Shown: positions 1 to 25,426, counted from the first letter of the stretch. The stretch is DNA of 54,827 bases from Candidatus Nealsonbacteria bacterium (GCA_026396195.1 JAPLXH010000001.1:1-54827), one strand, 5' to 3'. The notes: generated by a model from the sequence alone, not told the origin. Translations and numbers: made by a program.

Positions 1-83
1 AATATTTACCTGGAATACTGGCAAGGGGTATCCCTCTTTTTTAAGGTATTCTTGGGCTATCTTTAGCCCGCCAAGAGTTGGCT
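1..83 (-). CDS. hypothetical protein, N-terminal fragment running off the window edge
   Basis: ATG at 83-81 with GGAGG (complement of 92-96) upstream and a TTGACA box at 135-140. Reads MGYKPTLGGLKIAQEYLKKEGYPLPVFQ. Too short to classify. Confidence 0.3.
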
Positions 84-134
84 TATATCCCATTATTTCT
101 ACCTCCAACTTCTTTTTATATTAAATTATTGATT

Positions 135-161
135 TGTCAAACTAAAAACCGCCTAATCCCC
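135..161 (-). promoter_or_regulatory. degenerate copy of the cassette junction (TTGACA box plus remnant of the CGCC/GGCG hairpin)
   Basis: Minus strand reads ggattaggcggtttttagTTGACAaatcaataattt, matching the junctions at 711-767 and 1640-1690. The -10 box is poor. Confidence 0.3.
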
Positions 162-230
162 TATTTTCTAAAATAAAAAAGTGGTTTGATATTATTTATC
201 GCGCCACCATAGCATAATGCAAATATGCAC

Positions 231-659
231 CTATCCGAGCCCGAGCTGACATCCGTAGAGTTTAAACAACCTTTGTTTTTCTTCATTTTCTACTCCTGCC
301 ATACCTAGTATTTTTACTGCAGCTCCACACCATCCTTTTTTAAGATAATCCTCTCCTATTTTTCGGAGGATTTCCTTCGAAGGCATCTCTACTTTTATCT
401 CTTCGCCAATTGTTTCTGCAAAGTGCGGCGAACCATTTTCAAAATAAGGCATTATATATTTTTGTAAAAGTTCTTTTAAGCTTTCCGGTCTTCCTAAAAA
501 GTTGTAGATCTCAATAGCTGGACAAGGCGAGCGATTTTCCAAAAACATACCTGCTAACTGTTCCATTTCTCCCACGGTAAGGTTAGCGTCGGGCAACTTC
601 TCTTTGATATGTAAAAAGAGAGAACCCTCTTCAAATAATTCTTCTATCTTGCTTTTCAT
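231..659 (-). CDS. hypothetical protein (142 aa), no recognisable family
   Basis: ORF with AGAGGTG Shine-Dalgarno 7 nt upstream of the ATG. It has its own consensus promoter at 711-740. Confidence 0.6.
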   Translation of the reverse strand: MKSKIEELFEEGSLFLHIKEKLPDANLTVGEMEQLAGMFLENRSPCPAIEIYNFLGRPESLKELLQKYIMPYFENGSPHFAETIGEEIKVEMPSKEILRKIGEDYLKKGWCGAAVKILGMAGVENEEKQRLFKLYGCQLGLG

Positions 660-678
660 TTCAATTTCACCTCTTTAT

Positions 679-702
679 AAAGAAATAATTTCTTATTTCC
701 TT
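679..702 (-). promoter_or_regulatory. 5' UTR palindrome AAGAAAT-A-ATTTCTT, candidate operator
   Basis: Perfect 7+1+7 palindrome about +10 to +24 from the predicted TSS. A 23-24 nt identical copy lies at 4600-4623 in the same position relative to another promoter. Confidence 0.4.
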
Positions 703-710
703 TCACCTGT

Positions 711-740
711 ATTATAACATACTAATTTATAATTTGTCAA
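711..740 (-). promoter_or_regulatory. sigma70-type promoter TTGACA-N18-TATAAT
   Basis: Minus strand reads ttgacaaattataaattagtatgttataat. It is 29/30 identical to 2337-2366. Confidence 0.6.
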
Positions 741-743
741 ATC

Positions 744-767
744 AAAAAACCGCCTGATTGGCGATTT
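744..767 (-). terminator. junction hairpin ATCGCC-AATCA-GGCGGT followed by T6
   Basis: Minus strand reads aaatcgccaatcaggcggtttttt. The same motif recurs at 1671-1690, 2378-2400, 4166-4189 and 4662-4685, and a close relative terminates hpf at 25294-25323. Confidence 0.5.
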
Positions 768-975
768 CTTAATGGCTTGCACTGAGCGGAGTGAAACGAA
801 GGTCCTTCGATAAACTCAGGACACTTCTCCTTCGTTTCACGAAGTCGAAGTGCTGCGGGGCTTGGACGCTTGCCCGTCCGTAGTCCGAAAGACGAAGGAG
901 GGACGTTAAGCTCGCCCATAGGTCTCACCCGTAAGATTACAACCGAGGGGTTATGCCCGAAGGAACCGGCTTGGA
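768..975 (-). repeat. GC-rich composite element: palindromic REP-like units plus a 24-nt copy of the tRNA-Gln 3' end and flank
   Basis: 12-bp perfect stem gtgaaacgaagg/ccttcgtttcac (791-840). Positions 844-867 are identical to 6288-6311. Further blocks are shared with 6181-6296 and 4190-4270. Confidence 0.5.
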
Positions 976-997
976 ACTTATTTAATAAAAATATAAT

Positions 998-1021
998 AAA
1001 AAAAGGATGATTTCATCCTTT
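998..1021 (-). terminator. rho-independent terminator of the 1022-1579 gene
   Basis: Minus strand has AAAGGATGA-aa-TCATCCTTT followed by TTTTTATT. Confidence 0.6.
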
Positions 1022-1579
1022 TTAGTTTTTATTAAGATTTTTAATAATTTTTTCAACTAATTCATTAAGCATAGGAGCTACTTCCCTTTTAAACTCCTCT
1101 CCTTTAGCGTCATATCCAATACTGTAGCTTAGTCCATGTAATTTTTCGGGATCAAAAAATTTTAGAGGATTATAGACACATCCGGCAAAATTATAAGTTT
1201 TAATTATTGCTATGTCTATATTTCTGTATGTTTTGCCAAAGTACAACTCTGAAAAATCGTCAGTTTTTTCCTCCCCTAAAATAAACAATGGACCAACAAA
1301 TCTCTCTATTTCCGTTACGACAGGCTTGCCAAAAAGCTTTCTCTTTGATTTTTTGATTTTAGCTTTCTTGCTTATCTGAATCTTATATGATTTAATCTTT
1401 TCTTTGATTAACTCTTCTTTTTCGTATTCGTATTGTTTCTCTATGTCTTCTCCAAGAATACCTATGTTTGGTCCCATTTCTTCAACTGCTTTTTTAATTG
1501 CGTAATAAAGCTTTTCTCCTTCTGCCTTCTTTCCAAGATCTATTCTTAAAATCATGCTTCCTACACAGACTATCACCAT
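1022..1579 (-). CDS. hypothetical protein (about 185 aa), Lys/Glu-rich middle
   Basis: ORF 1022-1615 trimmed to the internal ATG at 1579 (MVIVCVG...), which has AGGAGG 7 nt upstream. No recognisable motif. Confidence 0.6.
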   Translation of the reverse strand: MVIVCVGSMILRIDLGKKAEGEKLYYAIKKAVEEMGPNIGILGEDIEKQYEYEKEELIKEKIKSYKIQISKKAKIKKSKRKLFGKPVVTEIERFVGPLFILGEEKTDDFSELYFGKTYRNIDIAIIKTYNFAGCVYNPLKFFDPEKLHGLSYSIGYDAKGEEFKREVAPMLNELVEKIIKNLNKN

Positions 1580-1639
1580 TTTTTTTACCTCCTTTTTAAT
1601 TTTAAAAAAGATCAAGTTTCCTTAATCTAAACTGGCTAT

Positions 1640-1690
1640 ATTATAATTTAATTTTAAATTTTGTCAAACTAAAAAACCGCCTGATTACAG
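1640..1690 (-). promoter_or_regulatory. cassette junction: TTGACA-N16-TATAAT promoter plus degenerate hairpin and T6
   Basis: The -35 is at 1662-1667 and the -10 at 1640-1645 (complement). Upstream lies ctgtaatcaggcggtttttt. Confidence 0.55.
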
Positions 1691-1771
1691 ACAGTCCCTG
1701 TATTAATTTTCTTTTTCCAGTTCACAAGTGATTACGAACTAGAAAAAAAAAGAGGGAGAGAAAAAGTAAGC

Positions 1772-2233
1772 TTACTCTAAAAGTTCCTTTATGGTGTTGA
1801 AAAAGTCTGACGGGGAAACTATTATCAAACCGTCGGGGAGATGTTCACCGATAGGCTCAAAATATAAAAACACTCCACTCTCTGGTTCTTCCGTGCGCCA
1901 CTGAATAGCTATTGATTTGCCATCTTCTTTGTATTCTAGCTCATCTGTATTCGCATAATCATGATATATTATTTCTGCCTTCTTTTTGTTTATAAAATTA
2001 CAAAGGCTGTATAATTCTTGGGCTACCTCTGGATGTTTACAAAGGAAGATCATTTCGTTTTGAAGCGTAGATTTAAAATCCTTTGATAACCATTTTTTCC
2101 AAATTAAGATGATGGGTACTGTTCTTTGCTCCGAATCATTTCTAGAAAAATGGGCTGTGAAGAGAATTGTTCCTTCTTTTTTTTCAACTTCTAACGCAAT
2201 TGCGCTGTTTAATGCTTTTATCAATTTTCCCAT
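1772..2233 (-). CDS. hypothetical protein (153 aa)
   Basis: ORF with a GAGGT Shine-Dalgarno. It has a long structured 5' UTR behind the promoter at 2337-2366. Confidence 0.6.
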   Translation of the reverse strand: MGKLIKALNSAIALEVEKKEGTILFTAHFSRNDSEQRTVPIILIWKKWLSKDFKSTLQNEMIFLCKHPEVAQELYSLCNFINKKKAEIIYHDYANTDELEYKEDGKSIAIQWRTEEPESGVFLYFEPIGEHLPDGLIIVSPSDFFNTIKELLE

Positions 2234-2239
2234 ATTTTA

Positions 2240-2284
2240 TCTACCTCAGAGAAAAAACTATCTGAATTTCCTCTCCGAGGTAGA
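2240..2284 (-). promoter_or_regulatory. 5' UTR hairpin that sequesters the Shine-Dalgarno of the 1772-2233 gene
   Basis: TCTACCTC-G-GAGA...TCTC-T-GAGGTAGA forms a stem of about 12 bp. The 3' arm contains GAGGT (2243-2247), 9 nt before the ATG. Confidence 0.4.
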
Positions 2285-2336
2285 CAAATTTTTTCCCTCT
2301 ATTTTTTCTCAAAGAACTATATTATTCTGTATTTAT

Positions 2337-2400
2337 ATTATACCATACTAATTTATAATTTGTCAATTGTAAACATAATAACCGCCCTGTTGGCGATTTT
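2337..2400 (-). promoter_or_regulatory. cassette junction: TTGACA-N18-TATAAT promoter plus CGCC-AACA-GGGCGG hairpin
   Basis: ttgacaaattataaattagtatggtataat is 29/30 identical to 711-740. The hairpin remnant at 2378-2400 lacks a T-run. Confidence 0.6.
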
Positions 2401-2426
2401 AACTATAACTCACCGACGCGTCTCAA

Positions 2427-3077
2427 TCAGGTCATTTTATTCTTTAATTTTAAAGCTACCATAGTTTTTGCTTCGTCATTAGGATATGCCCAGGCATTCT
2501 CAAAAAAAGAAAATTTTACTAAACGATGCGGAGAAGTAGGAAAACTTGGATCGTGAATAAAAAAATATTCATCATCAAAACCCTTTAAAACAACGAAATG
2601 ACCAGAATAGCCTGGTTCATTATTTAATTTACGAGAATTAACTATACAGATAATCAAATATCCCTGCGAAAGAAAATTTTTTAAATCGTTCATTGTTGGA
2701 ATTCTCTTTTCAATTGGAATTTTTTTTATAAAATCTTTGGCTATTTTTCTTTCTTGTTCAATATCGCTGTGCTCAATTTGAGACTCTCCCACTTCTTCAC
2801 CATACTTATCAATCAAATATTTTCCGCCAAATTTGATAAATTTCTCGTAATCAAAAACCTCTACGTCCCTTACTTCAATGCCATGATCTTGAAGCCAGAT
2901 TAATCCTGCCATTGTCCAGGTCCACAATCCCTTAACCTTTGCCGTTATTCTGTCTAATTCTTCCCAGAAAAAATCTTTATCCGGCCAAAAGTATTTCATG
3001 ACCATTTTTAGAGACGCCTGATAACAGTGGGTATCGTCTGGATTTTTATAAAATGGTACTTCTTTATCTATCTTCAT
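2427..3077 (-). CDS. papain-fold cysteine peptidase, C39-like (Peptidase_C39_2-like)
   Basis: N-terminal DDTHCYQASLKMV (candidate catalytic Cys) and distal GYSGHFVVLKGFDD (candidate His) are in the order typical of C39-like domains. Confidence 0.5.
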   Translation of the reverse strand: MKIDKEVPFYKNPDDTHCYQASLKMVMKYFWPDKDFFWEELDRITAKVKGLWTWTMAGLIWLQDHGIEVRDVEVFDYEKFIKFGGKYLIDKYGEEVGESQIEHSDIEQERKIAKDFIKKIPIEKRIPTMNDLKNFLSQGYLIICIVNSRKLNNEPGYSGHFVVLKGFDDEYFFIHDPSFPTSPHRLVKFSFFENAWAYPNDEAKTMVALKLKNKMT

Positions 3078-3087
3078 GTATTTTTAG

Positions 3088-3143
3088 AGATTTTTTGGCT
3101 TCCCCGCCGACGCGCTTACCCTGAGTTTACCGAAGGGTCTCGG
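3088..3143. repeat. GC-rich palindromic (REP-like) element
   Basis: ggcttccccgccgac...gtctcggtcgggg forms a stem of about 9 bp with one bulge. It shares tttttggctYcccc and gtctcggtcRggg with 4740-4785. Confidence 0.4.
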
Positions 3144-3157
3144 TCGGGGTCTTGTTC

Positions 3158-3604
3158 CTATCTTTTTATATAAAATTTTTTCTTTAAATAATTTTCAATA
3201 ACTTCAAAACTTGGAAAATAACGCGGAAATGGTAAATCGTTTAAGTCAAACCACCGCCATTCTGTCATTTCATCCGGCTCCATAACTTTCGCTTCGCCTT
3301 CCCACTTATTAACTAAAAAACCGACCGTCATAAAATGAGCGTGTTCGTTTTTGCAATTATGAACGGAAATAACTTCGGGATTGCTTATTATAATTCCTGT
3401 TTCTTCTTTGACTTCGCGCGCAGCAGCTTCTTCAAGCGTTTCTCCCCAGTCAAGCTTGCCTCCTGGCAAAGACCATTCTCCCGCGCTGCGAAAAGCCGAA
3501 TCAGCTTTATCAGGGTCGGGATGACGCTTGCCAAGAAGAATTTTTCCGTTGCGCTCAAGTATTACCCCAAATCCCGCGCCAACTTTCTTTTTTTCTTCTG
3601 ACAT
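3158..3604 (-). CDS. NUDIX hydrolase
   Basis: Nudix box GGKLDWGETLEEAAAREVKEETGI (GX5EX7REUXEEXGU). Confidence 0.85.
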   Translation of the reverse strand: MSEEKKKVGAGFGVILERNGKILLGKRHPDPDKADSAFRSAGEWSLPGGKLDWGETLEEAAAREVKEETGIIISNPEVISVHNCKNEHAHFMTVGFLVNKWEGEAKVMEPDEMTEWRWFDLNDLPFPRYFPSFEVIENYLKKKFYIKR

Positions 3605-3609
3605 ATTTT

Positions 3610-4149
3610 TTAACTTAATTGTATTTTGTTTAAAATAAAATTTATTCTCTCTTTAATAGGTATTACTGGAACTCGTATTACATTATAGCCTAAATTTGAA
3701 TATGCCTTATAATGCATCTGACCTATGCGTTCCGCCATCTTTTCATCTTCTATCCTGGCATAATCTTTTTTAAATAATATCGGTTCTAAGAAAAAAATTT
3801 TCTTGTACTTTCTTTTTTTAGCCTCTGCAATAATCGGAGCAGGGTCTAATCCGACAATCTGGTAATGAGCAATACTGCAAGCAACCGCTCCGTCGATAAA
3901 AATATCCTTTTCGGGCGACAATTTATTTTCGTTCTCAATTTTTATTTGAAAAATATTTTTCTGAAATTCAACATCATTGGCCCTAATTTCTTCTATTGTT
4001 TTTCCTTTATCTACTTCGGCGTTTATTATGCTCCTGGCAACCTCAGGAACTGTTTTATGGCCCAGAAAAGACAAATAATCAATCACGGTTGTCTTACCTG
4101 AGCAAGGCCCTCCGGTAATCACGTACCAATTAGTATTAACAACTTTCAT
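3610..4149 (-). CDS. P-loop ATPase/kinase of the AAA_28 type (NadR C-terminal ribosylnicotinamide-kinase-like)
   Basis: Walker A ITGGPCSGKTT at the N terminus. The size of about 180 aa and the downstream EVAR...FQ...FIDG pattern are typical of AAA_28. It lies 5 nt upstream of the NUDIX gene. Confidence 0.65.
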   Translation of the reverse strand: MKVVNTNWYVITGGPCSGKTTVIDYLSFLGHKTVPEVARSIINAEVDKGKTIEEIRANDVEFQKNIFQIKIENENKLSPEKDIFIDGAVACSIAHYQIVGLDPAPIIAEAKKRKYKKIFFLEPILFKKDYARIEDEKMAERIGQMHYKAYSNLGYNVIRVPVIPIKERINFILNKIQLS

Positions 4150-4165
4150 ATATCATTATTTTACC

Positions 4166-4189
4166 AAAAAACCGCCTGATTGGCGATTT
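4166..4189 (-). terminator. junction hairpin CGCC-AATCA-GGCG plus T6
   Basis: aaatcgccaatcaggcggtttttt is identical to 744-767. No TTGACA box follows here, and the ATPase ATG is only about 20 nt downstream. Confidence 0.45.
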
Positions 4190-4270
4190 CCAATGTGTCT
4201 CAGTCACCTGACTTAGCGTGTGATGGCTACGGAGCTTGGACGACGTTAGAACCTGTTTGGTGGAAGTTTA
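4190..4270 (-). repeat. shortened homologue of the 768-975 element, with a degenerate tRNA-Gln 3'-like block
   Basis: Minus strand aacgtcgtccaagctccgtagc compares with aacgtcc...gcgtccaagccccgcagc in 768-975. Both end in catt..gaaatcgcc. Confidence 0.35.
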
Positions 4271-4309
4271 AATAAAAAATAAAGGAAGGATTGTATTATT
4301 TTCCTTCCT
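4270..4309 (-). terminator. rho-independent terminator of the 4326-4556 gene
   Basis: AGGAAGGA-11 nt-TCCTTCCT followed by TTATTTTTTATTT on the minus strand. Confidence 0.6.
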
Positions 4310-4325
4310 AAGATAGTTTTTGTTT

Positions 4326-4556
4326 TTACTGTTTTGGAATATTTCCTGGGTTCGGGAATTGCATTCTTGTGACGATTTCAAATGCTTGTTTCTCGGTAAA
4401 GCCTTCCGATTTTAACGAATCAAAATATCTTTTTGTGAATTTTGCCATTTCTTTAGGAAGGCCTTTGTCGGAGATTATCTTTTTCAGCATCTTCATTACA
4501 ATGTTCGTTGTCCCATCCATTATTTCTTCCATTTCTTTCAATTCTTCTTTATCCAT
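4326..4556 (-). CDS. hypothetical small protein (76 aa), acidic N terminus
   Basis: ORF 4326-4583 trimmed to the ATG at 4556 (MDKEELKEME...), which has AGAGGTG 6 nt upstream. The RBS and UTR match those of the 231-659 gene. Confidence 0.55.
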   Translation of the reverse strand: MDKEELKEMEEIMDGTTNIVMKMLKKIISDKGLPKEMAKFTKRYFDSLKSEGFTEKQAFEIVTRMQFPNPGNIPKQ

Positions 4557-4599
4557 TATTTCACCTCTAAAATAATTTTCCAAGATTACCTGGAAAACA

Positions 4600-4623
4600 A
4601 AAGAAATAATTTCTTATTTCCTT
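4600..4623 (-). promoter_or_regulatory. second copy of the AAGAAAT-A-ATTTCTT UTR palindrome
   Basis: Identical over 23-24 nt to 679-702, at the same distance from its promoter. Confidence 0.4.
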
Positions 4624-4631
4624 GTATTAAT

Positions 4632-4685
4632 ATTATATAATTATAATAATAATTTGTCAATAAAAATAGCCTGCTTAACGATTTT
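4632..4685 (-). promoter_or_regulatory. cassette junction: TTGACA-N17-TATAAT promoter plus diverged hairpin
   Basis: The -35 is at 4655-4660 and the -10 at 4632-4637 (complement). Upstream lies aaatcgttaagcaggctattttt. Confidence 0.6.
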
Positions 4686-4690
4686 ATTTG

Positions 4691-4785
4691 CTGTGTGCCC
4701 CGGTCAAGAACCAAGTCTTTAAGAGGAAATTCGGGCTATTTTTGGCTCCCCCGTTGACCCGTCTCGGTCAGGGTGTTTTGAAGCT
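4691..4785. repeat. GC-rich palindromic (REP-like) element
   Basis: Contains tttttggctcccccgttgacccgtctcggtcagggtg, related to 3088-3143, with a TGACC/GGTCA stem. Confidence 0.4.
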
Positions 4786-4800
4786 AAAATGAGACAAATG

Positions 4801-4819
4801 AGACACCAGATAGGTGTCT
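4801..4819 (-). terminator. hairpin terminator after the DUF4238 gene
   Basis: GACACC-tatc-tGGTGTC directly after the stop codon, followed by a T-rich tract. Confidence 0.45.
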
Positions 4820-4821
4820 TA

Positions 4822-5829
4822 TTATCCTACTTTCATTTCAAATGGGTATGGTATAGATTCTTCAATAAATTTATCAAGAAACTTATTCCTGTCCGGAGAA
4901 AAAATAAAACTTTTGGAATTATGGGCAATATTATAATTAACCGTTCTCGCTAAAAATCCCTGTGAAATCTTTACATAGTCTAAATCCCTTTTTTCTCTCC
5001 TTGTCATCAAAATACAAATCTCTTTCGATAATGGAAAATACAGTTCCGTATAGGGACCGCCTAAGCTTTTTTCCCTAAATAAAAAGTTAACTTTTTCTGG
5101 CGGCACAAAATAAACTGCGGGATTATCACTCGTAATGAATAAAAATTCCGTCTCGTTCTTAAGAATATGAATATTCATGTCAGAGATAAGTTGAGCCATC
5201 ATCCCCATCTTTTCAAACATTCTTTTAATCAACGTATTCCCGCCAATCTTAATTTTGAGTTTTCCTTCCTTGGCTTGTTTTAAATAATTATTAATGATTT
5301 TTAAAATTTCTTGCTCAGAAAGGTTGGGCTCTCGTTTGGCAAATTCTTTCTTTAAAGATTCGATACGTTCTTCTTCTCTAACACGAAATTTTTGGAACAT
5401 CTGAAAATCAGCGGTATACATTTCCTCTATCTCATCTTTGCTATGTAGGGTTCTGCCCATCATTGATGCTGTAAGATTGATAATATATGATCTGTGTTTT
5501 TTTATCACTTCCGAAAATGGAATGTGATTTATGTCGTTAATAAGGTTATTATAGTAACTCTCAATTTCATCGTTAAAAAAATCTTCAAAAATGTTTCGAT
5601 TTGGCAAATTTCCTTTGGGAATATATAAGTTATTTTTAACGGCGATGTTATTTAAACCATCACTCCCCACCACGGTGATTAATCTATCTTCTTTAGTAAA
5701 CCCCTTTTTAAAAAACTGCTTTCCTTTTTTATAAACATAAAGAGTACTATCGTCATTCAAAAATTTCTCTAGGTGTACCTTGGGAATGAAATGATTGCGC
5801 CTTTTTATTTCTTCAGTCATATATTCCAC
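4822..5829 (-). CDS. DUF4238-like protein
   Basis: N-terminal NHFIPKVHLEKF resembles the HY(V/I)PxFYLxxF signature I associate with DUF4238. Size 335 aa. Confidence 0.55.
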   Translation of the reverse strand: MEYMTEEIKRRNHFIPKVHLEKFLNDDSTLYVYKKGKQFFKKGFTKEDRLITVVGSDGLNNIAVKNNLYIPKGNLPNRNIFEDFFNDEIESYYNNLINDINHIPFSEVIKKHRSYIINLTASMMGRTLHSKDEIEEMYTADFQMFQKFRVREEERIESLKKEFAKREPNLSEQEILKIINNYLKQAKEGKLKIKIGGNTLIKRMFEKMGMMAQLISDMNIHILKNETEFLFITSDNPAVYFVPPEKVNFLFREKSLGGPYTELYFPLSKEICILMTRREKRDLDYVKISQGFLARTVNYNIAHNSKSFIFSPDRNKFLDKFIEESIPYPFEMKVG

Positions 5830-5880
5830 TAATTCTTTTTTGATTTATATCTTTGAGGATTTACTCTTCTATCAATAAAC

Positions 5881-5934
5881 GCGTCTCGGTCTCTCGATGG
5901 TTCGGGTTAGCTCACCACAAGTACCGAGCGCTAG
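5881..5934. repeat. GC-rich palindromic element (ctcaccacaagt type)
   Basis: gcgtctcggtctctcgatggttcgggttagctcaccacaagtaccgagcgc, with a ctcggt/accgag stem. It is related to 6368-6394. Confidence 0.4.
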
Positions 5935-6174
5935 TTACTTATTTATTAACGCTAATTTTTTCTTTCGGCGCCAACCTTTGATTTGTCTTTCTCTCCTTAG
6001 CGCTTTTTTTTGTGTTGAGTATGATTCTTTGTAAATAATCTTCACTGCATTGTGACTGCTAGTGTAATGTCCTCCTTTTTTATTCTTGTGTTCTAAAAAT
6101 CTTCTTTCAATATCGTTAGTAACGCCAGTATAAATACTATTATCGTCGCAAAGAAGAAAATAAAGATAATACAT
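5935..6174 (-). CDS. GIY-YIG nuclease superfamily protein (UPF0213/YhbQ-like)
   Basis: MYYLYFLLCDDNSIYTGVTNDIERRFLEHK contains the GIY...YTG motif, with a downstream R..E. ORF trimmed from 6219 to the ATG at 6174, because the extension only reads through a GC-rich repeat. Confidence 0.8.
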   Translation of the reverse strand: MYYLYFLLCDDNSIYTGVTNDIERRFLEHKNKKGGHYTSSHNAVKIIYKESYSTQKKALRRERQIKGWRRKKKLALINK

Positions 6175-6180
6175 AGGTTT

Positions 6181-6296
6181 GGTCCTTCGGCTGCGCTCAG
6201 GACACTTCGCCTCGTTCACTTAACCACATTAAACAAGTAAGTCGAAGGGCCTGCACTGAGCGAGTCCTGAATATAAATGAAGGACGAGTCGAAGTG
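6181..6296. repeat. GC-rich REP-like block immediately 3' of tRNA-Gln
   Basis: ggtccttcggctgcgctcaggacac and gcactgagcg units are shared with 779-824. Confidence 0.45.
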
Positions 6297-6367
6297 CTGC
6301 GGGGCTTGGACTCGAACCAAGATACATAGCTCCAGAGGCTATAGTCCTACCATTAGACGACCCCGCA
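6297..6367 (-). tRNA. tRNA-Gln (anticodon CUG)
   Basis: Hand-folded cloverleaf: acceptor TGCGGGG/CCCCGCA (U1-A72 as in Gln tRNAs), anticodon loop CTCTGGA, T-arm CTTGG-TTCGAGT-CCAAG. No encoded CCA. Confidence 0.9.
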
Positions 6368-6394
6368 ATGGTTCGATAAACTCACCACAAGTAA
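6368..6394. repeat. GC-rich element 5' of tRNA-Gln (ggttcgataaactcaccacaagta)
   Basis: Close match to 5900-5924, ggttcgggttagctcaccacaagta. Confidence 0.4.
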
Positions 6395-7303
6395 TCACAC
6401 TTTAAGATATTTTCTGATGGCAAGCAAGGCAGGAACTACAGACAAAGCCAAAGCGATTAAAAATTGAATTAAAAATAAACTTGACAGGTTTCCCTCAAAA
6501 TAATCTAAAAGATTAAATCCCGGGACTAAAATCGCTAATTTCGAAGAAAGAAAATAACATCCCAAGCTGAAAATTATAATTGTAATAATGGTGGCAACTA
6601 CTGCCGAAATTAATCCCTGAACCACGAAAGGGCCCCGGATAAACCAATTGGAAGCGCCAACAAGTCTCATTATAGAAATTTCTTCTTTTGAGTTGGAAAT
6701 TCCCAATCTCACGGTATTTAAAACTACCAATATCGCTAAAATAACTGAAATTAAAACGGCTAAAATCGAGGCTTTCTCAATGGCAGAGGTAATGGAAAAC
6801 AATCTGTTAATTATTTCTTTGTTTTGATAATAATTAATTTTATTTATAATTGCTTTAAAATTCGGGTTTTCTAAAAATTTAACTATTTGTTCATATTGAG
6901 AGGCCTGCCAAGCTTTAATGTTTAAATGGGCGGCAAGAGGATTGTCCCCTATTTCACTTAAAGATCCCATAATTATGGGATTGTCTTTGTGTTTTTGAGT
7001 AAAATCAGTTAAAGCTTTTTCTCTGGAAATATATTCAATATTTTTAACTTCAGAAATAACAGCAAGGTCACTTTTTACCTTTATCATCTCTTCTTCTTGG
7101 GCCTCTAATTTGAAATAAACGCTGATATCCGCTTTTTCTTCTAAAGAACTTATTAAAGAAGCGGTTAGCGCTTTAACGAAAAACAAACCCCCGATTAAAG
7201 AGGTGGATATTACCATTATAAAAACCGTGGCAAAAAATAAGCCCTTATTTCTCCACAAACCGTTCCAGCCAAATTTAAAAATTCTTCTTATTGCAATTAA
7301 CAT
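6395..7303 (-). CDS. ftsX: cell division permease FtsX
   Basis: Four-TM FtsX-like topology with a large loop after TM1. It directly follows and overlaps ftsE. Confidence 0.85.
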   Translation of the reverse strand: MLIAIRRIFKFGWNGLWRNKGLFFATVFIMVISTSLIGGLFFVKALTASLISSLEEKADISVYFKLEAQEEEMIKVKSDLAVISEVKNIEYISREKALTDFTQKHKDNPIIMGSLSEIGDNPLAAHLNIKAWQASQYEQIVKFLENPNFKAIINKINYYQNKEIINRLFSITSAIEKASILAVLISVILAILVVLNTVRLGISNSKEEISIMRLVGASNWFIRGPFVVQGLISAVVATIITIIIFSLGCYFLSSKLAILVPGFNLLDYFEGNLSSLFLIQFLIALALSVVPALLAIRKYLKV

Positions 7304-8052
7304 ATAAATCTGCCTTTTTGTTCATCTCTTATTAACTCGCCCTTGTCTAAGGTGACAACTCTTTTTTTAAGACCGTTAATTATTTCTTTATCGTGAGTAG
7401 ATAAAATAACGGTTGTCCCCATTTCCTGAATTTGGAGCAAAAGTTTAATTATATCTCTGGTATTATAAGGGTCCAGGTTGCCGGTCGGCTCATCAGCGCA
7501 AATCAATTCCGGCCTGTTAATTAAGGCTCGGGCTATCGCCGCTCTTTGTCTTTCTCCGCCGGAAAGTTCGTTGGGAAAATGATGAAAAAATTTGCCCAAA
7601 CCTACAATCTCTAAAACCCTGGGAACGTCCCGTTTAATTTCTTCATCGCTAAAACCCATCAATTCCATAACATAAGCTACGTTTTCATAAGCGGTTTTAG
7701 AAGAAATTAATTTATAATCCTGAAAAACAGCCCCAATCCTCCTTCTCATCAAGGGTAAGTGCGATGATTTTAATTTTTGAACTTCAATATTTTTAAAAAA
7801 AACTTGGCCTTGACTGGGTTTTTCTTCTCCTAAAAGAAGCTTGAGCAAAGTGGTCTTGCCAGCCCCAGATTTGCCGGCCAAACAAATAAATTCGCCCTCC
7901 TTAACATCAAAAGAAACGTCCTTTAGGGCTTGGATATTTTTAGGATAAATTTTGGTTATATTCTTGAAAGAAACCAAAATTTCTCCGCCCTGCCCTTGCT
8001 CTTGTTCTTCTTCTTTATTTATTAAGTTTGATTTCAGCTTTGATGAATTCAT
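7297..8052 (-). CDS. ftsE: cell division ATP-binding protein FtsE
   Basis: Walker [13 protein letters not shown] signature LSGGERQR, Walker [10 protein letters not shown]. Confidence 0.9.
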
Positions 8053-9285: not shown

Positions 9286-9356
9286 AGCGAGAGACGGGAG
9301 TCGAACCCGCGTCTCAACCTTGGGAAGGTCGCATAATGCCGTTATACTACTCTCGC
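9286..9356 (-). tRNA. tRNA-Gly (anticodon CCC)
   Basis: Hand fold: acceptor GCGAGAG/CTCTCGC, anticodon arm CGACC-TTCCCAA-GGTTG, T-arm GCGGG-TTCGACT-CCCGT. Confidence 0.85.
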
Positions 9357-9401
9357 CTATTATAACAAAGGAATTTGGGAAAGTATCATTAAGCCGATCA
9401 A

Positions 9402-9975: not shown

Positions 9976-11625
9976 TCAGCTTTTTTTAAACTGTTTCATA
10001 AGAGCAGACTTAATGGTTGACAATTCAGGAGATTTTAAAAGAAAACTTAGCACGGCATAAACTAAAATACCCGCCAAGCCGGCAAAAAAACCTTGCAAAA
10101 AAACGCCCTTAAAAGTACTCATGTTCACCAAGCTACCTATTAAAAAAAGAGTTGAATAAACAGAAATTACCATAAAAAAAGCGGATAATAAATTTTTTTC
10201 AAAAGAAAATAAAATTTCTTTTATTTTAAAATCGCCTACTTTTTTATAAAAAAACAACAAAAGCAATGCAGTTTGAAAAATTGCCGTTAAAGAAAAAGCC
10301 AAGGGCAAACCGGTTACGGAAATATCGCTGATTTTAGAAAGATCAAAAATAAAAGATATAAAATTTGAAACCAAGTTTGAAGTTTTAATAATTTGAACAA
10401 AAGAAAAACTTAGAAAAATATTCAAAATAACGCTAACTATTGTAATTAATGTCGGAGTTTTGGTGTCTTTTATGGAAAAAAAGGCTCGGCACAAGAGAGG
10501 ATAAATGGCTGAAAACAAAATACCGATGGTAAAAATTCCAAGACAAGCGGCGGTAAGCTGAGTATCCTCCCAATCAAATTTTCCTCTGTTCAATCCCCCC
10601 AAAACAACTCTCACTAATTGGGCCCGCAATAAAAACATTAAAACCGTAAAAGGAACTACCAAAAAAATAATTTGCCGGAAAGCGGAAGAAAAGCTTTCGA
10701 AAAACCCTTCTTTTTCCTTTTGGGCCCAAAATTTAGACAAAACAGGGAAGGAAGCTAAGGCAAAAGAAATCCCGATAATGCCTATCGGAATATTATATAG
10801 GTTGTTAGAAAAATTAAAAATAGCAATGCTCCCCACAATCAAAGTAGACGCTATAATTGTCGTAATAATTAAATTTATCTGCTGAATGCCTATGGCAAAA
10901 CAACGAGGAATCATTAATTTAAAAATTTCTTTCAGGGCCCTGTGTTTTAAATTAAAAATTGGTTTATATTTGAAACCGCAATATAAAACCGAAGGAATTT
11001 GAATTAAAAAATGAAAAAAAGCGCCGATAACCACTCCTATCGCCGCTCCGAAAATTCCGAAACGAGGAGATAAAACTACAATGCCGAAAATAATTCCCAG
11101 GTTATAAAATACCGGAGACAAGGAATAAACTAAAAACCGGTTGTGATACTGCAAAATACCGGAAAAAATGTTAGACAATCCCAATAAAATCGGACTTAAA
11201 AACATTAACCGGGCAAGCCTTACGACTAAAGCCATGTTTTCCTCAGAAAAACCGGGGGTAATAATTTTGACCAACCAAGGAGCAAAAATAAAAAAAATCA
11301 AGCTTAAAAAACAAAGAAAAAATAAAAAAACATTAAAAACATTGCTCGCCATTTCCCAACTTTTTTCTTTGTCTTTTTCGTAATATTCGGCAAATAAAGG
11401 TAAAAAAGCCACGGTAAGACCGCCGACAATTATAAAATTATAAACAAAATCGGGAATTAAAAAAGAAGCAAAATAAACATCAGTTTCCGAACCGGCCCCG
11501 AAGTAACCCGCCAGCAAACCATCCCTTATTAAACCTAAAAATCTGCTGATCAAAGCCGAAGCGCTTAAAATTCCGGCGGCAAAAGTTATGGTTTTAGTTT
11601 GAGAATTAAAAAAACGCTTTATCAT
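9976..11625 (-). CDS. murJ: lipid II flippase MurJ (MviN family)
   Basis: N-terminal SRFLGLIRDGLLAGYFGAGSETDVYFASF matches the MurJ signature. The protein is polytopic, about 14 TM. Confidence 0.85.
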   Translation of the reverse strand: MIKRFFNSQTKTITFAAGILSASALISRFLGLIRDGLLAGYFGAGSETDVYFASFLIPDFVYNFIIVGGLTVAFLPLFAEYYEKDKEKSWEMASNVFNVFLFFLCFLSLIFFIFAPWLVKIITPGFSEENMALVVRLARLMFLSPILLGLSNIFSGILQYHNRFLVYSLSPVFYNLGIIFGIVVLSPRFGIFGAAIGVVIGAFFHFLIQIPSVLYCGFKYKPIFNLKHRALKEIFKLMIPRCFAIGIQQINLIITTIIASTLIVGSIAIFNFSNNLYNIPIGIIGISFALASFPVLSKFWAQKEKEGFFESFSSAFRQIIFLVVPFTVLMFLLRAQLVRVVLGGLNRGKFDWEDTQLTAACLGIFTIGILFSAIYPLLCRAFFSIKDTKTPTLITIVSVILNIFLSFSFVQIIKTSNLVSNFISFIFDLSKISDISVTGLPLAFSLTAIFQTALLLLFFYKKVGDFKIKEILFSFEKNLLSAFFMVISVYSTLFLIGSLVNMSTFKGVFLQGFFAGLAGILVYAVLSFLLKSPELSTIKSALMKQFKKS

Positions 11626-25270: not shown

Positions 25271-25293
25271 AAAAATATTTTAAAAATATCAAA

Positions 25294-25323
25294 CAAAAAA
25301 TCGCCTAATTGGCGATTTTTTTC
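25294..25323. terminator. bidirectional rho-independent terminator (hpf on minus, small ORF on plus)
   Basis: aaaaaAATCGCC-taat-tGGCGATTttttt. Confidence 0.6.
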
Positions 25324-25426
25324 GAATATCGAAGCCAACCTAACCTCTTGAAGTAAAAAATATTATAAACTACTCCATTCATTAGGGGCGGAGTATCCCC
25401 TTTAGAGCAAATTCTTTTGTCCCGAT

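Follow-up and report, generated by a model that had tools for sequence, protein, structure and literature searches.

The first 6,295 positions of the window, by which we mean the whole stretch of 54,827 nucleotides (nt) that was analysed (Candidatus Nealsonbacteria bacterium, GCA_026396195.1 JAPLXH010000001.1:1-54827), probably belong to a hypervariable island that grew out from the 3' end of a tRNA-Gln gene, and form the part of it nearest to that tRNA. We think that it has grown by accretion of DNA without an integrase, combined with a shuffling of transcription units that is mediated by repeated terminator-promoter modules, and we would put the probability of this reading at about 0.6. Copies of the tRNA 3' end are repeated within the island, one of the junctions between its units is a mosaic, the gene content of relatives is hypervariable from the tRNA onwards, and in relatives an empty site can be compared with an occupied one.

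The stretch is a segment of the chromosome of a Patescibacterium, with ftsE/ftsX, RNase P RNA and tRNAs within the window and no phage module, and 53 of its 54 genes are on the minus strand. Its FtsX is at most 60% identical to proteins of metagenome-assembled genomes (MAGs) of the Nealsonbacteria/Paceibacteria type. The order tRNA-Gly, tRNA-Thr, ftsE, ftsX, tRNA-Gln is conserved throughout the clade, and synteny statistics identify tRNA-Gln as the anchor of the island, at the border between this conserved block and the hypervariable region: among 29 genomes, the median number of other loci with a homologue is 18 for open reading frames (ORFs) upstream of tRNA-Gln and 0 for those downstream. 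A preliminary description of the region, made from the sequence alone, had proposed a variable, accreting locus of self-promoted units, and had named identical content and order in all relatives as a finding that would speak against it. The content after tRNA-Gln is not conserved in relatives, and the proposal of a variable island has stood.

Closely related pairs of loci (numbered here with the prefix L) place the change at the tRNA itself. L012 and L017 are 97-98% identical through ftsE, ftsX and tRNA-Gln to the last base of the tRNA, and what lies beyond is unrelated, while L023 and L024 (96-97% identical) have 1.5 kb and 3.9 kb, respectively, directly after the tRNA. In L253, tRNA-Gln is succeeded by the flank that in L017 comes after a pseudo-tRNA end (L017:10084-10114), and L017 thus carries about 6.95 kb between its tRNA and this scar. 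Here an empty and an occupied site are seen directly, in relatives rather than in the window genome. The cargo of L017 consists of genes for a CAP-domain protein, a DUF218 protein, a dehydrogenase, a methyltransferase and unknowns, and includes no recombinase.

In the window, the tRNA and the copies of its 3' end are the following.

6296-6367, minus strand: tRNA-Gln(CTG), called by ARAGORN and scoring 58.6 bits with Rfam.
6287-6311, minus strand: direct repeat copy A, made up of the final 16 nt of tRNA-Gln and 9 nt downstream (GTCCAAGCCCCGCAGCACTTCGACT).
843-867, minus strand: direct repeat copy B, which repeats 25 nt of the tRNA-Gln 3' end and flank exactly and resembles an attR scar.
4217-4241, minus strand: degenerate repeat copy C, a decayed tRNA-Gln 3' end.
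4226-4256, minus strand: pseudo-tRNA 3' end, consisting of the 19-mer ACAGGTTCTAACGTCGTCC and the tail AAGCTCCGTAGC, and overlapping copy C.

Copy C is preceded by the 19-nt motif ACAGGTTCTAACRTCGTCC. Ahead of copy B, at 868-925, direct reading finds what seems to be a split version of the motif with a GC-rich insert (..TTAACGTC/CCTCCTTCGTC..ACTACGGACGGGCAAGC/GTCC), and inserts of this type are also present in L096 and L036. The 19-mer of the pseudo-tRNA end occurs as a single copy in the window. Elsewhere it is found, among the matches listed, in more than 120 genome stretches of GTDB, nearly all of them Patescibacteria, and the loci that we examined hold 305 distinct copies (chosen by the motif, with at most 3 mismatches), in which each position is 85-99% conserved. 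The 19-mer is fused to a tail that ends in AGC, like the acceptor end of tRNA-Gln or tRNA-Asn, it has no inverted partner, and in every array examined its copies share the strand of the genes of the locus. It lies, in the median, 44 nt past a stop codon, with a T-run some 43 nt further on. In loci chosen for ftsX alone, all plausible 19-mers are downstream of, and co-oriented with, tRNA-Gln, and in 137 other loci a co-oriented tRNA, mostly tRNA-Asn or tRNA-Gln, is upstream of the first motif 31 times and downstream of it 6 times (P = 4e-5). We read the 19-mer as the mark of the distal end of DNA that was inserted at tRNA-Gln or tRNA-Asn, which the comparison of the empty site of L253 with the occupied one of L017 shows directly. 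No description of the 19-mer with its tRNA-like tail was found in the literature; this phylum-wide element appears to be undescribed, and we regard it as the most interesting lead of the analysis.

Three other readings of the repeated sequences were rejected. The tRNA-like tails are hardly retro-copies of mature tRNA, as CCA follows the discriminator position in only 34 of the 305 copies, and for a DNA uptake sequence (DUS) the copies are too few, strictly intergenic and co-oriented. A dif-/Xer-like reading of the 19-mer was set aside by reasoning, there being no conserved inverted arms across the tail variants.

Units of motif, hairpin, promoter and small ORF also occur in L170, L213 and L230. 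L170 has at least five copies of the motif in 6 kb (8 at 4 mismatches), and L213 and L230 (closed 517-kb genome OY969803.1) have units of about 700-900 nt with motif, hairpin, promoter and one or two small ORFs. There are 6-8 units in each of these last two arrays, with ORFs of 65-230 amino acids behind a near-identical motif-hairpin-promoter junction, and the paired small ORFs in several of the units recall toxin-antitoxin-like pairs.

Between the start of the window and tRNA-Gln there are ten short genes in eight units, most of them orphans in the databases, with a mean gene length of 169 amino acids against 334 in the remainder of the window. The array of short minus-strand units had been drawn correctly in the preliminary description, apart from the start of the leftmost one, which is at 93 and not at 83.

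1-93, minus strand: a further ORF of which only the start is seen, leaving the window at its left edge (direct reading).
231-659, minus strand: ORF142, an orphan with a single homologue (73% at the amino acid level) on the ENA contig L299, in another gene neighbourhood.
1022-1579, minus strand: ORF185, an orphan that matches only itself among 5.8 billion proteins.
1772-2233, minus strand: ORF153, with seven weak homologues among 1.8 billion representative proteins.
2427-4149, minus strand: three-gene unit, with an AAA_28 ATPase, a NUDIX hydrolase and a C39-like protein.
3610-4149, minus strand: the AAA_28 ATPase of this unit.
3158-3604, minus strand: the NUDIX hydrolase of this unit.
2427-3077, minus strand: the C39-like / Guanylate_cyc_2 protein of this unit.
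3078-3157: GC-rich insert inside the three-gene unit.
4326-4556, minus strand: ORF76, a small orphan with its own predicted terminator at 4275-4310.
4822-5820, minus strand: DUF4238 protein.
5935-6174, minus strand: small protein of 79 amino acids with a GIY-YIG nuclease domain, directly after tRNA-Gln.

Nearly every one of these genes would be a separate unit, insulated by a terminator hairpin with a T-run and by a sigma-70 promoter or an extended -10 box. The junctions that carry these predicted signals are listed here; UTR stands for untranslated region.

104-174, minus strand: J1, where the hairpin is reduced to its 3' half (ATTAGGCGGTTTTTA), with TTGACA at 135-140 and a weak -10.
679-775, minus strand: J2, with hairpin 744-768, promoter 711-740 and the shared UTR and palindrome 679-703; a mosaic of J5, J4 and J6.
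1637-1702, minus strand: J3, with hairpin 1671-1695 (same 3' arm and T-run, other left arm) and promoter 1640-1667.
2334-2407, minus strand: J4, with promoter 2337-2366 and hairpin 2380-2398, whose loop is AACAG; a long leader that contains hairpin 2236-2288 comes next.
4144-4197, minus strand: J5, in which hairpin 4166-4189 abuts the extended -10 TGGTAAAAT (4158-4166); ATG at 4149, with a short leader or none.
4600-4692, minus strand: J6, with decayed hairpin 4660-4685, promoter 4632-4660 and the shared UTR and palindrome 4600-4624.

Four sites (711-740, 1640-1667, 2337-2366 and 4632-4660) match TTGACA-N16-18-TATAAT at 12 of 12 positions, and they are the sole four in the 54.8 kb. Related genomes have 15 such sites in about 986 kb, which gives an expectation of 0.096 per 6.3 kb against the four seen (P ~3e-6). 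Together with two further predicted sites they make up the promoter-like sequences that directly precede units. A covariance model of the junction from hairpin to -10, a scan that the preliminary description had called for, was built from five training copies and run over the whole window with filters off. It recovers the training copies at 54-80 bits and adds only 4144-4197 and the terminator of hpf (25274-25326), so that a junction is present in six of the nine gaps of the island and in one of the 13 gaps elsewhere (Fisher P = 0.007).

The hairpin CGCC-AATCA-GGCG with T6 is exact at 744-768 and 4166-4189, within a 28-nt block with 1 mismatch, while the hairpin at 1671-1695 has kept AATCAGGCGGTTTTTT and pairs it with a different left arm (CUGUCUG); a homologue of this type of hairpin is present on L299, at another relative position. 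On RNA folding, the hairpins at 744-768, 4166-4189, 2380-2398 and 1671-1695 reach -15.6, -11.4, -9.1 and -12.9 kcal/mol. With z from -3.2 to -6.2 and a U-run directly after, these four of the six junction hairpins are predicted rho-independent terminators. The sequences at 135-161 and 4660-4685, of which only the 3' half is present, fold no better than shuffles, and of the six hairpin copies first reported these two are therefore only half-sites.

The similarity of the junctions is due to duplication and not to convergence, as the preliminary description had also argued. Nine junctions share 13 blocks of at least 16 nt (with at most 1 mismatch) against 0.03 in shuffles, and the promoters 711-740 and 2337-2366, which precede unrelated ORFs, do indeed differ at one of 30 positions. 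In about 1 Mb of relatives the best match to the junction model reaches 36 bits, against the 54-80 bits in the window, and the junctions of the window thus form a local and homogenised family. Nor does the 30-nt promoter block occur beyond the locus, that is, elsewhere in the window, in the same relatives or in the JGI metagenome collection, which agrees with the earlier expectation that it would not be spread upstream of core genes.

J2 (679-768) is a three-way mosaic of J5, J4 and J6. Its hairpin part, 741-768, equals 4163-4190 over 28 nt, its promoter part, 710-740, equals 2336-2366 over 31 nt with the whole spacer included, and its UTR part, 679-703, equals 4600-4624 over 25 nt (about 24 nt had been reported), each with 1 mismatch. 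The UTR part holds the perfect palindrome AAGAAATAATTTCTT. A gene that has changed its surroundings is also found: the DNA identity of 83% between ORF142 and its homologue on L299 begins at the Shine-Dalgarno sequence and extends no further than two bases after the stop codon, and on L299 the neighbours, the promoter and the terminator (another standard hairpin, CCCGAGAG..CTCTCGGG) are all different. Both the mosaic and the change of flanks between ORF142 and L299 would fit breakpoints that lie in the modules.

We hypothesize that the 3' end of tRNA-Gln has again and again received insertions of cargo DNA that has no integrase, and that each insertion would regenerate the tRNA, push older DNA outwards and leave a copy of the tRNA 3' end on its far side, exact at 843-867 and decayed at 4217-4241. 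Such scars would carry the conserved arm ACAGGTTCTAACRTCGTCC, as at the decayed copy, or the apparently split version, as at the exact one. The enzyme responsible may act in trans or be encoded to the left of the window. Within the island, the modules would offer patches of near-identity of 16-31 nt, and recombination among them would homogenise the copies and swap promoters, leaders and ORFs, which would result in near-identical promoters before unrelated ORFs and in the mosaic junction. The cassette accretion that was first suggested has thus held as far as an island at tRNA-Gln is concerned, but the hairpin-promoter sequence is probably not its primary joint, the scars being copies of the tRNA-Gln 3' end.

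Several observations weigh against this reading. There is no recombinase among the island proteins (Pfam) or among the ORFs of at least 100 amino acids in the 54.8-kb window (phmmer with a XerD probe), and no serine recombinase in the window with a gamma-delta resolvase probe. In 2.5 Mb of related loci there are only six Xer-like ORFs, and none was shown to adjoin an array. No insertion, excision or swap was seen in the window genome itself, for which the sole other assembly is identical. The promoter and terminator activity of the junctions is a prediction, the GC content of the island equals that of the remaining window, and the occurrence of the module ahead of housekeeping genes makes its hairpin part a shared regulatory grammar. 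A GIY-YIG gene, moreover, directly follows tRNA-Gln in at least five relatives, and two others have it immediately behind the pseudo-tRNA motif (loci with such an arrangement include L036, L065, L069, L064, L007, L253 and L242), and with such synteny the innermost unit may be a resident and not the newest arrival. Whether the GIY-YIG protein is a resident neighbour or a part of the mechanism is a matter of speculation.

The simplest rival is that the junctions are ordinary regulatory punctuation, in which a standard terminator and strong promoters serve monocistronic accessory genes, and selection, without any mobility, keeps them close to a consensus. The exact 20-mer CGCCAATCAGGCGGTTTTTT is present in 102 genome stretches, mostly of this clade and several per MAG, and the typical module is AAAAT-CGCC-N5-GGCGG-T6-GGTAGAAT-N5-8-ATG. 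It is present in many related genomes, where this form is the standard one, and 4149-4189 (J5) in the window has it too. Among the genes behind the module in relatives are those for FtsZ, an aminotransferase, an EngB-like GTPase, an HD-domain protein and a glycosyltransferase. The terminator of hpf (25294-25323) is a related hairpin; the hairpin is not peculiar to cassettes and belongs to a module of the whole lineage. In unselected relatives the stem is fixed while the loop is variable and can take GC-rich inserts of 30 nt, which fits an RNA hairpin rather than a dimeric operator; an operator for a dimeric transcription factor was rejected on this ground. What sets the window apart is how densely the modules lie, that they are fused to perfect -35/-10 promoters, and that the copies are near-identical in a mosaic fashion. 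Punctuation alone would not make the identity extend over positions that are free of any consensus, such as the whole 18-nt spacer and the 24-nt UTR, nor make one junction a patchwork of three others. The window copies are far closer to one another than to those of relatives, six of the seven are found in 11% of the window, and the tRNA 3'-end repeats and the empty and occupied sites are left without an explanation. We consider punctuation on its own to be unlikely.

It is likewise improbable that homologous recombination alone has shaped the locus, with DNA of relatives replacing a segment by way of an arm in ftsX-tRNA-Gln and another conserved arm, and with the copies of the tRNA end as by-products of local duplication. 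The replacement between L023 and L024, which has no tRNA-like repeat at its distal border, would suit this explanation, as would the lack of a visible integrase and the conserved modules as patches of homology. It leaves unexplained why a 19-mer with 85-99% conservation, in hundreds of copies within the motif selection of at most 3 mismatches, is always fused to a tail like that of tRNA-Gln or tRNA-Asn, why it is found exactly at the distal end of the L017 insertion, and why the arrays start at tRNA-Asn or tRNA-Gln.

It is very unlikely, in our view, that the locus is what remains of a prophage or of another element at tRNA-Gln, or the early region of one, with the modules and orphans as phage hyperplastic DNA and the remainder to the left of the window. 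The architecture resembles the PeSL cassettes of T4-type phages, there are GIY-YIG and NUDIX genes, and the island is located at a tRNA with direct repeats. A look for defence and phage functions among the island proteins gave, however, only generic matches for NUDIX and a few weak and generic PHROG matches, for NUDIX and ORF76, and there are no structural, replication or integrase genes. The same architecture carries housekeeping-type cargo in relatives, and the exact repeat at 843-867 bounds only 5.4 kb, with the style of junction continuing beyond it.

A chimeric join of unrelated contigs at the repeats can be dismissed almost completely: two Logan contigs from the same sample (SRR20698647) do end in junction repeats (112 and 2337-2360) and in the tRNA (6324), but they overlap and match the window with 100% identity at 112-2360 and 2337-6324, reads are longer than the repeats (31 nt at most), and the same architecture is present in many independent assemblies, closed genomes included. 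These two identical contigs were all that exact-protein look-ups for other strains gave, and the FtsX of the window had no record. If the Logan assembly used k = 31, as we assume, the junction repeats are shorter than k, and the breaks of the contigs may reflect heterogeneity of the population at the junctions.

Among known systems, the closest parallel to the junctions is the PeSL of T4-type phages, in which sigma-70-like promoters, together with stem-loop terminators, flank the ORFans of hyperplastic regions, with recombination taking place in the loop or next to it (Arbiol et al. 2010, PMC2839356; Comeau et al. 2014, PMC4122927). The junctions of the window likewise repeat a stem-loop terminator, an AT-rich stretch and a consensus sigma-70 promoter, with an activity that is here predicted. 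The copies flank small orphan ORFs in a variable region, where they are enriched over core gene blocks, and unrelated ORFs stand behind near-identical promoters. Short patches of homology are shared as well; here the hairpin is reduced to its 3' half at two junctions, and at another its left arm has been replaced. The differences are that the window belongs to the chromosome of a Patescibacterium and not to a T4-type phage genome, that its island is anchored at a tRNA gene with tRNA-end repeats, and that its hairpin stem is CGCC/GGCG, whereas that of PeSL is polyG/polyC. The mini-circles and recombination of PeSL have no observed counterpart in the window. By analogy, we regard the junction as a PeSL-like module in a cellular genome.

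The anchor, on the other hand, recalls the tycheposons of Prochlorococcus, whose serial integrations push older elements inwards and scatter partial tRNAs (bioRxiv 10.1101/2020.12.28.424599). As in such tRNA-targeting islands, the genome is a streamlined one and the island sits on the 3' side of a tRNA, exact and decayed partial-tRNA direct repeats are scattered in the island, older insertions would be displaced by newer ones, and the content of close relatives differs exactly from the end of the tRNA. Unlike tycheposons, neither the window island nor the occupied site of L017 has genes for a tyrosine recombinase, replication or packaging; the units of the window are single genes of 0.5-2 kb, and the partial tRNA is joined to a conserved non-tRNA 19-mer in place of the T-loop.

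With integrons and CALINs the island shares a co-oriented array of small, mostly orphan cassettes with a repeated element at their 3' ends, spaced at about 700-900 nt in the arrays of L213 and L230. It is not an integron, as was stated from the outset: there is no intI, attI or Pc, the borders are not imperfect inverted repeats of the attC type, each unit has its own predicted promoter and terminator, and the anchor is a tRNA gene. A scan of 1-6400 for the inverted repeats of attC-like sites gave only terminator hairpins, one leader hairpin and, at two junctions, GC-rich palindromes. The paired DUS of Neisseria and the enterobacterial REP are also conserved intergenic hairpins that are reused genome-wide as terminators, with nested GC-rich palindromes, but the window copies are far fewer, strictly co-oriented with the genes and at a fixed distance to the promoter, and their conserved part is the stem with the T-run, the loop being variable.

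More tentatively, and with less than even odds, we suggest that Patescibacteria of the Paceibacteria/Nealsonbacteria type have a widespread, undescribed system without integrases, in which tRNA-Gln and tRNA-Asn would acquire self-promoted single-gene cassettes one after another at their 3' ends. Every such cassette would be bounded by a mimic of the tRNA 3' end of about 31 nt (ACAGGTTCTAACATCGTCC + N9 + AGC), followed by the standard terminator-promoter, and would be moved by an enzyme acting in trans, such as a chromosomal recombinase or the small GIY-YIG nuclease that recurs at these sites. Bacteria with tiny genomes and no known repertoire of mobile elements would then have a functional analogue of integrons that is built from different parts.

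Some further elements of the locus deserve mention.

4685-4806, minus strand: conserved intergenic element of about 100-120 nt, with homologous copies in at least 14 loci of other Patescibacteria.
775-842, minus strand: GC-rich nested palindromes after repeat copy B, related to 6180-6286, which follows the tRNA.

The element at 4685-4806 has a repeat cluster, GAGACAC..GTGTCTCA-TT-TGTCTCA, then GACCGAGACG and then an end like that of a tRNA (CTTGGTTCTTGACCGGGGCACACAGC), and its first half recurs at 3092-3150. A structured RNA was rejected, as RNAalifold gave -0.76 kcal/mol and no convincing covariation, and a role at the DNA level, in protein binding or as the end of an element, seems likelier. 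Families of GC-rich palindromes (e.g. GTCCTGAG..CGAAGGAC and GCACTGAGCG..) are nested in one another at 775-842, 3105-3135, 5875-5934 and 6180-6286. They are also present in L036 at 9320-9360 and 10640-10700, and in relatives they are nested inside the loops of standard terminator hairpins. They seem to behave like miniature insertion elements in an AT-rich genome. GC-rich palindromic repeats are always found between the GIY-YIG gene and the tRNA or motif, and the repeats differ among genomes. In L065, two tandem tRNA-Gln(CTG) copies at about 7300-7470 are followed by a GIY-YIG gene, and L009 has at about 3620-3760 a tRNA-like gene in which about 55 nt are inserted behind the anticodon region and CCA is encoded, which ARAGORN does not call and which is preceded by a hairpin and a TTGACA promoter.

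The leaders have features of their own. The perfect 15-nt palindrome AAGAAATAATTTCTT, at 680-694 and 4601-4615, is 16-17 nt past the -10 of ORF142 and ORF76 and looks like an operator shared by two unrelated cassettes; it has no further exact copy in the window, and elsewhere only non-palindromic matches with 1 mismatch were found. The leader of ORF153 (2234-2336), with a length of about 100 nt, has at its end an imperfect hairpin of 22 bp, 2236-2288, whose 3' arm spans GAGGT, 9 nt ahead of the ATG. It has no Rfam match and may be an element of translational control, and by eye a similar promoter and leader are seen at L299 1533-1651, ahead of an unrelated ORF. Genes behind the hairpin-GGTAGAAT module, at 4149-4166 in the window and in many loci, start 5-8 nt past the -10 box, which implies leaderless or near-leaderless mRNAs as a common mode in the clade. 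Rfam, run over 1-7000 at E up to 5 and over the whole window at the gathering threshold, found nothing except tRNA-Gln and RNase P RNA, and thus no riboswitch, ribozyme or small RNA at the junctions or GC-rich elements.

Patescibacteria have very small genomes with few recognisable mobile elements, and how they gain and exchange accessory genes is largely an open question. The locus and its relatives suggest a concrete route, with tRNA-Gln and tRNA-Asn as landing pads and the 19-mer with its tRNA-like tail as the scar of insertion. The terminator-promoter modules would make incoming genes immediately expressible and insulated, and would at the same time serve as patches for recombination. For organisms in which such tools are still lacking, the compact terminators and the perfect consensus promoters are candidates for genetic parts. 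If the reading is true, the principle of PeSL would extend from phages to cellular genomes, and the 19-mer would be a searchable signature for the flexible gene pool across the superphylum.

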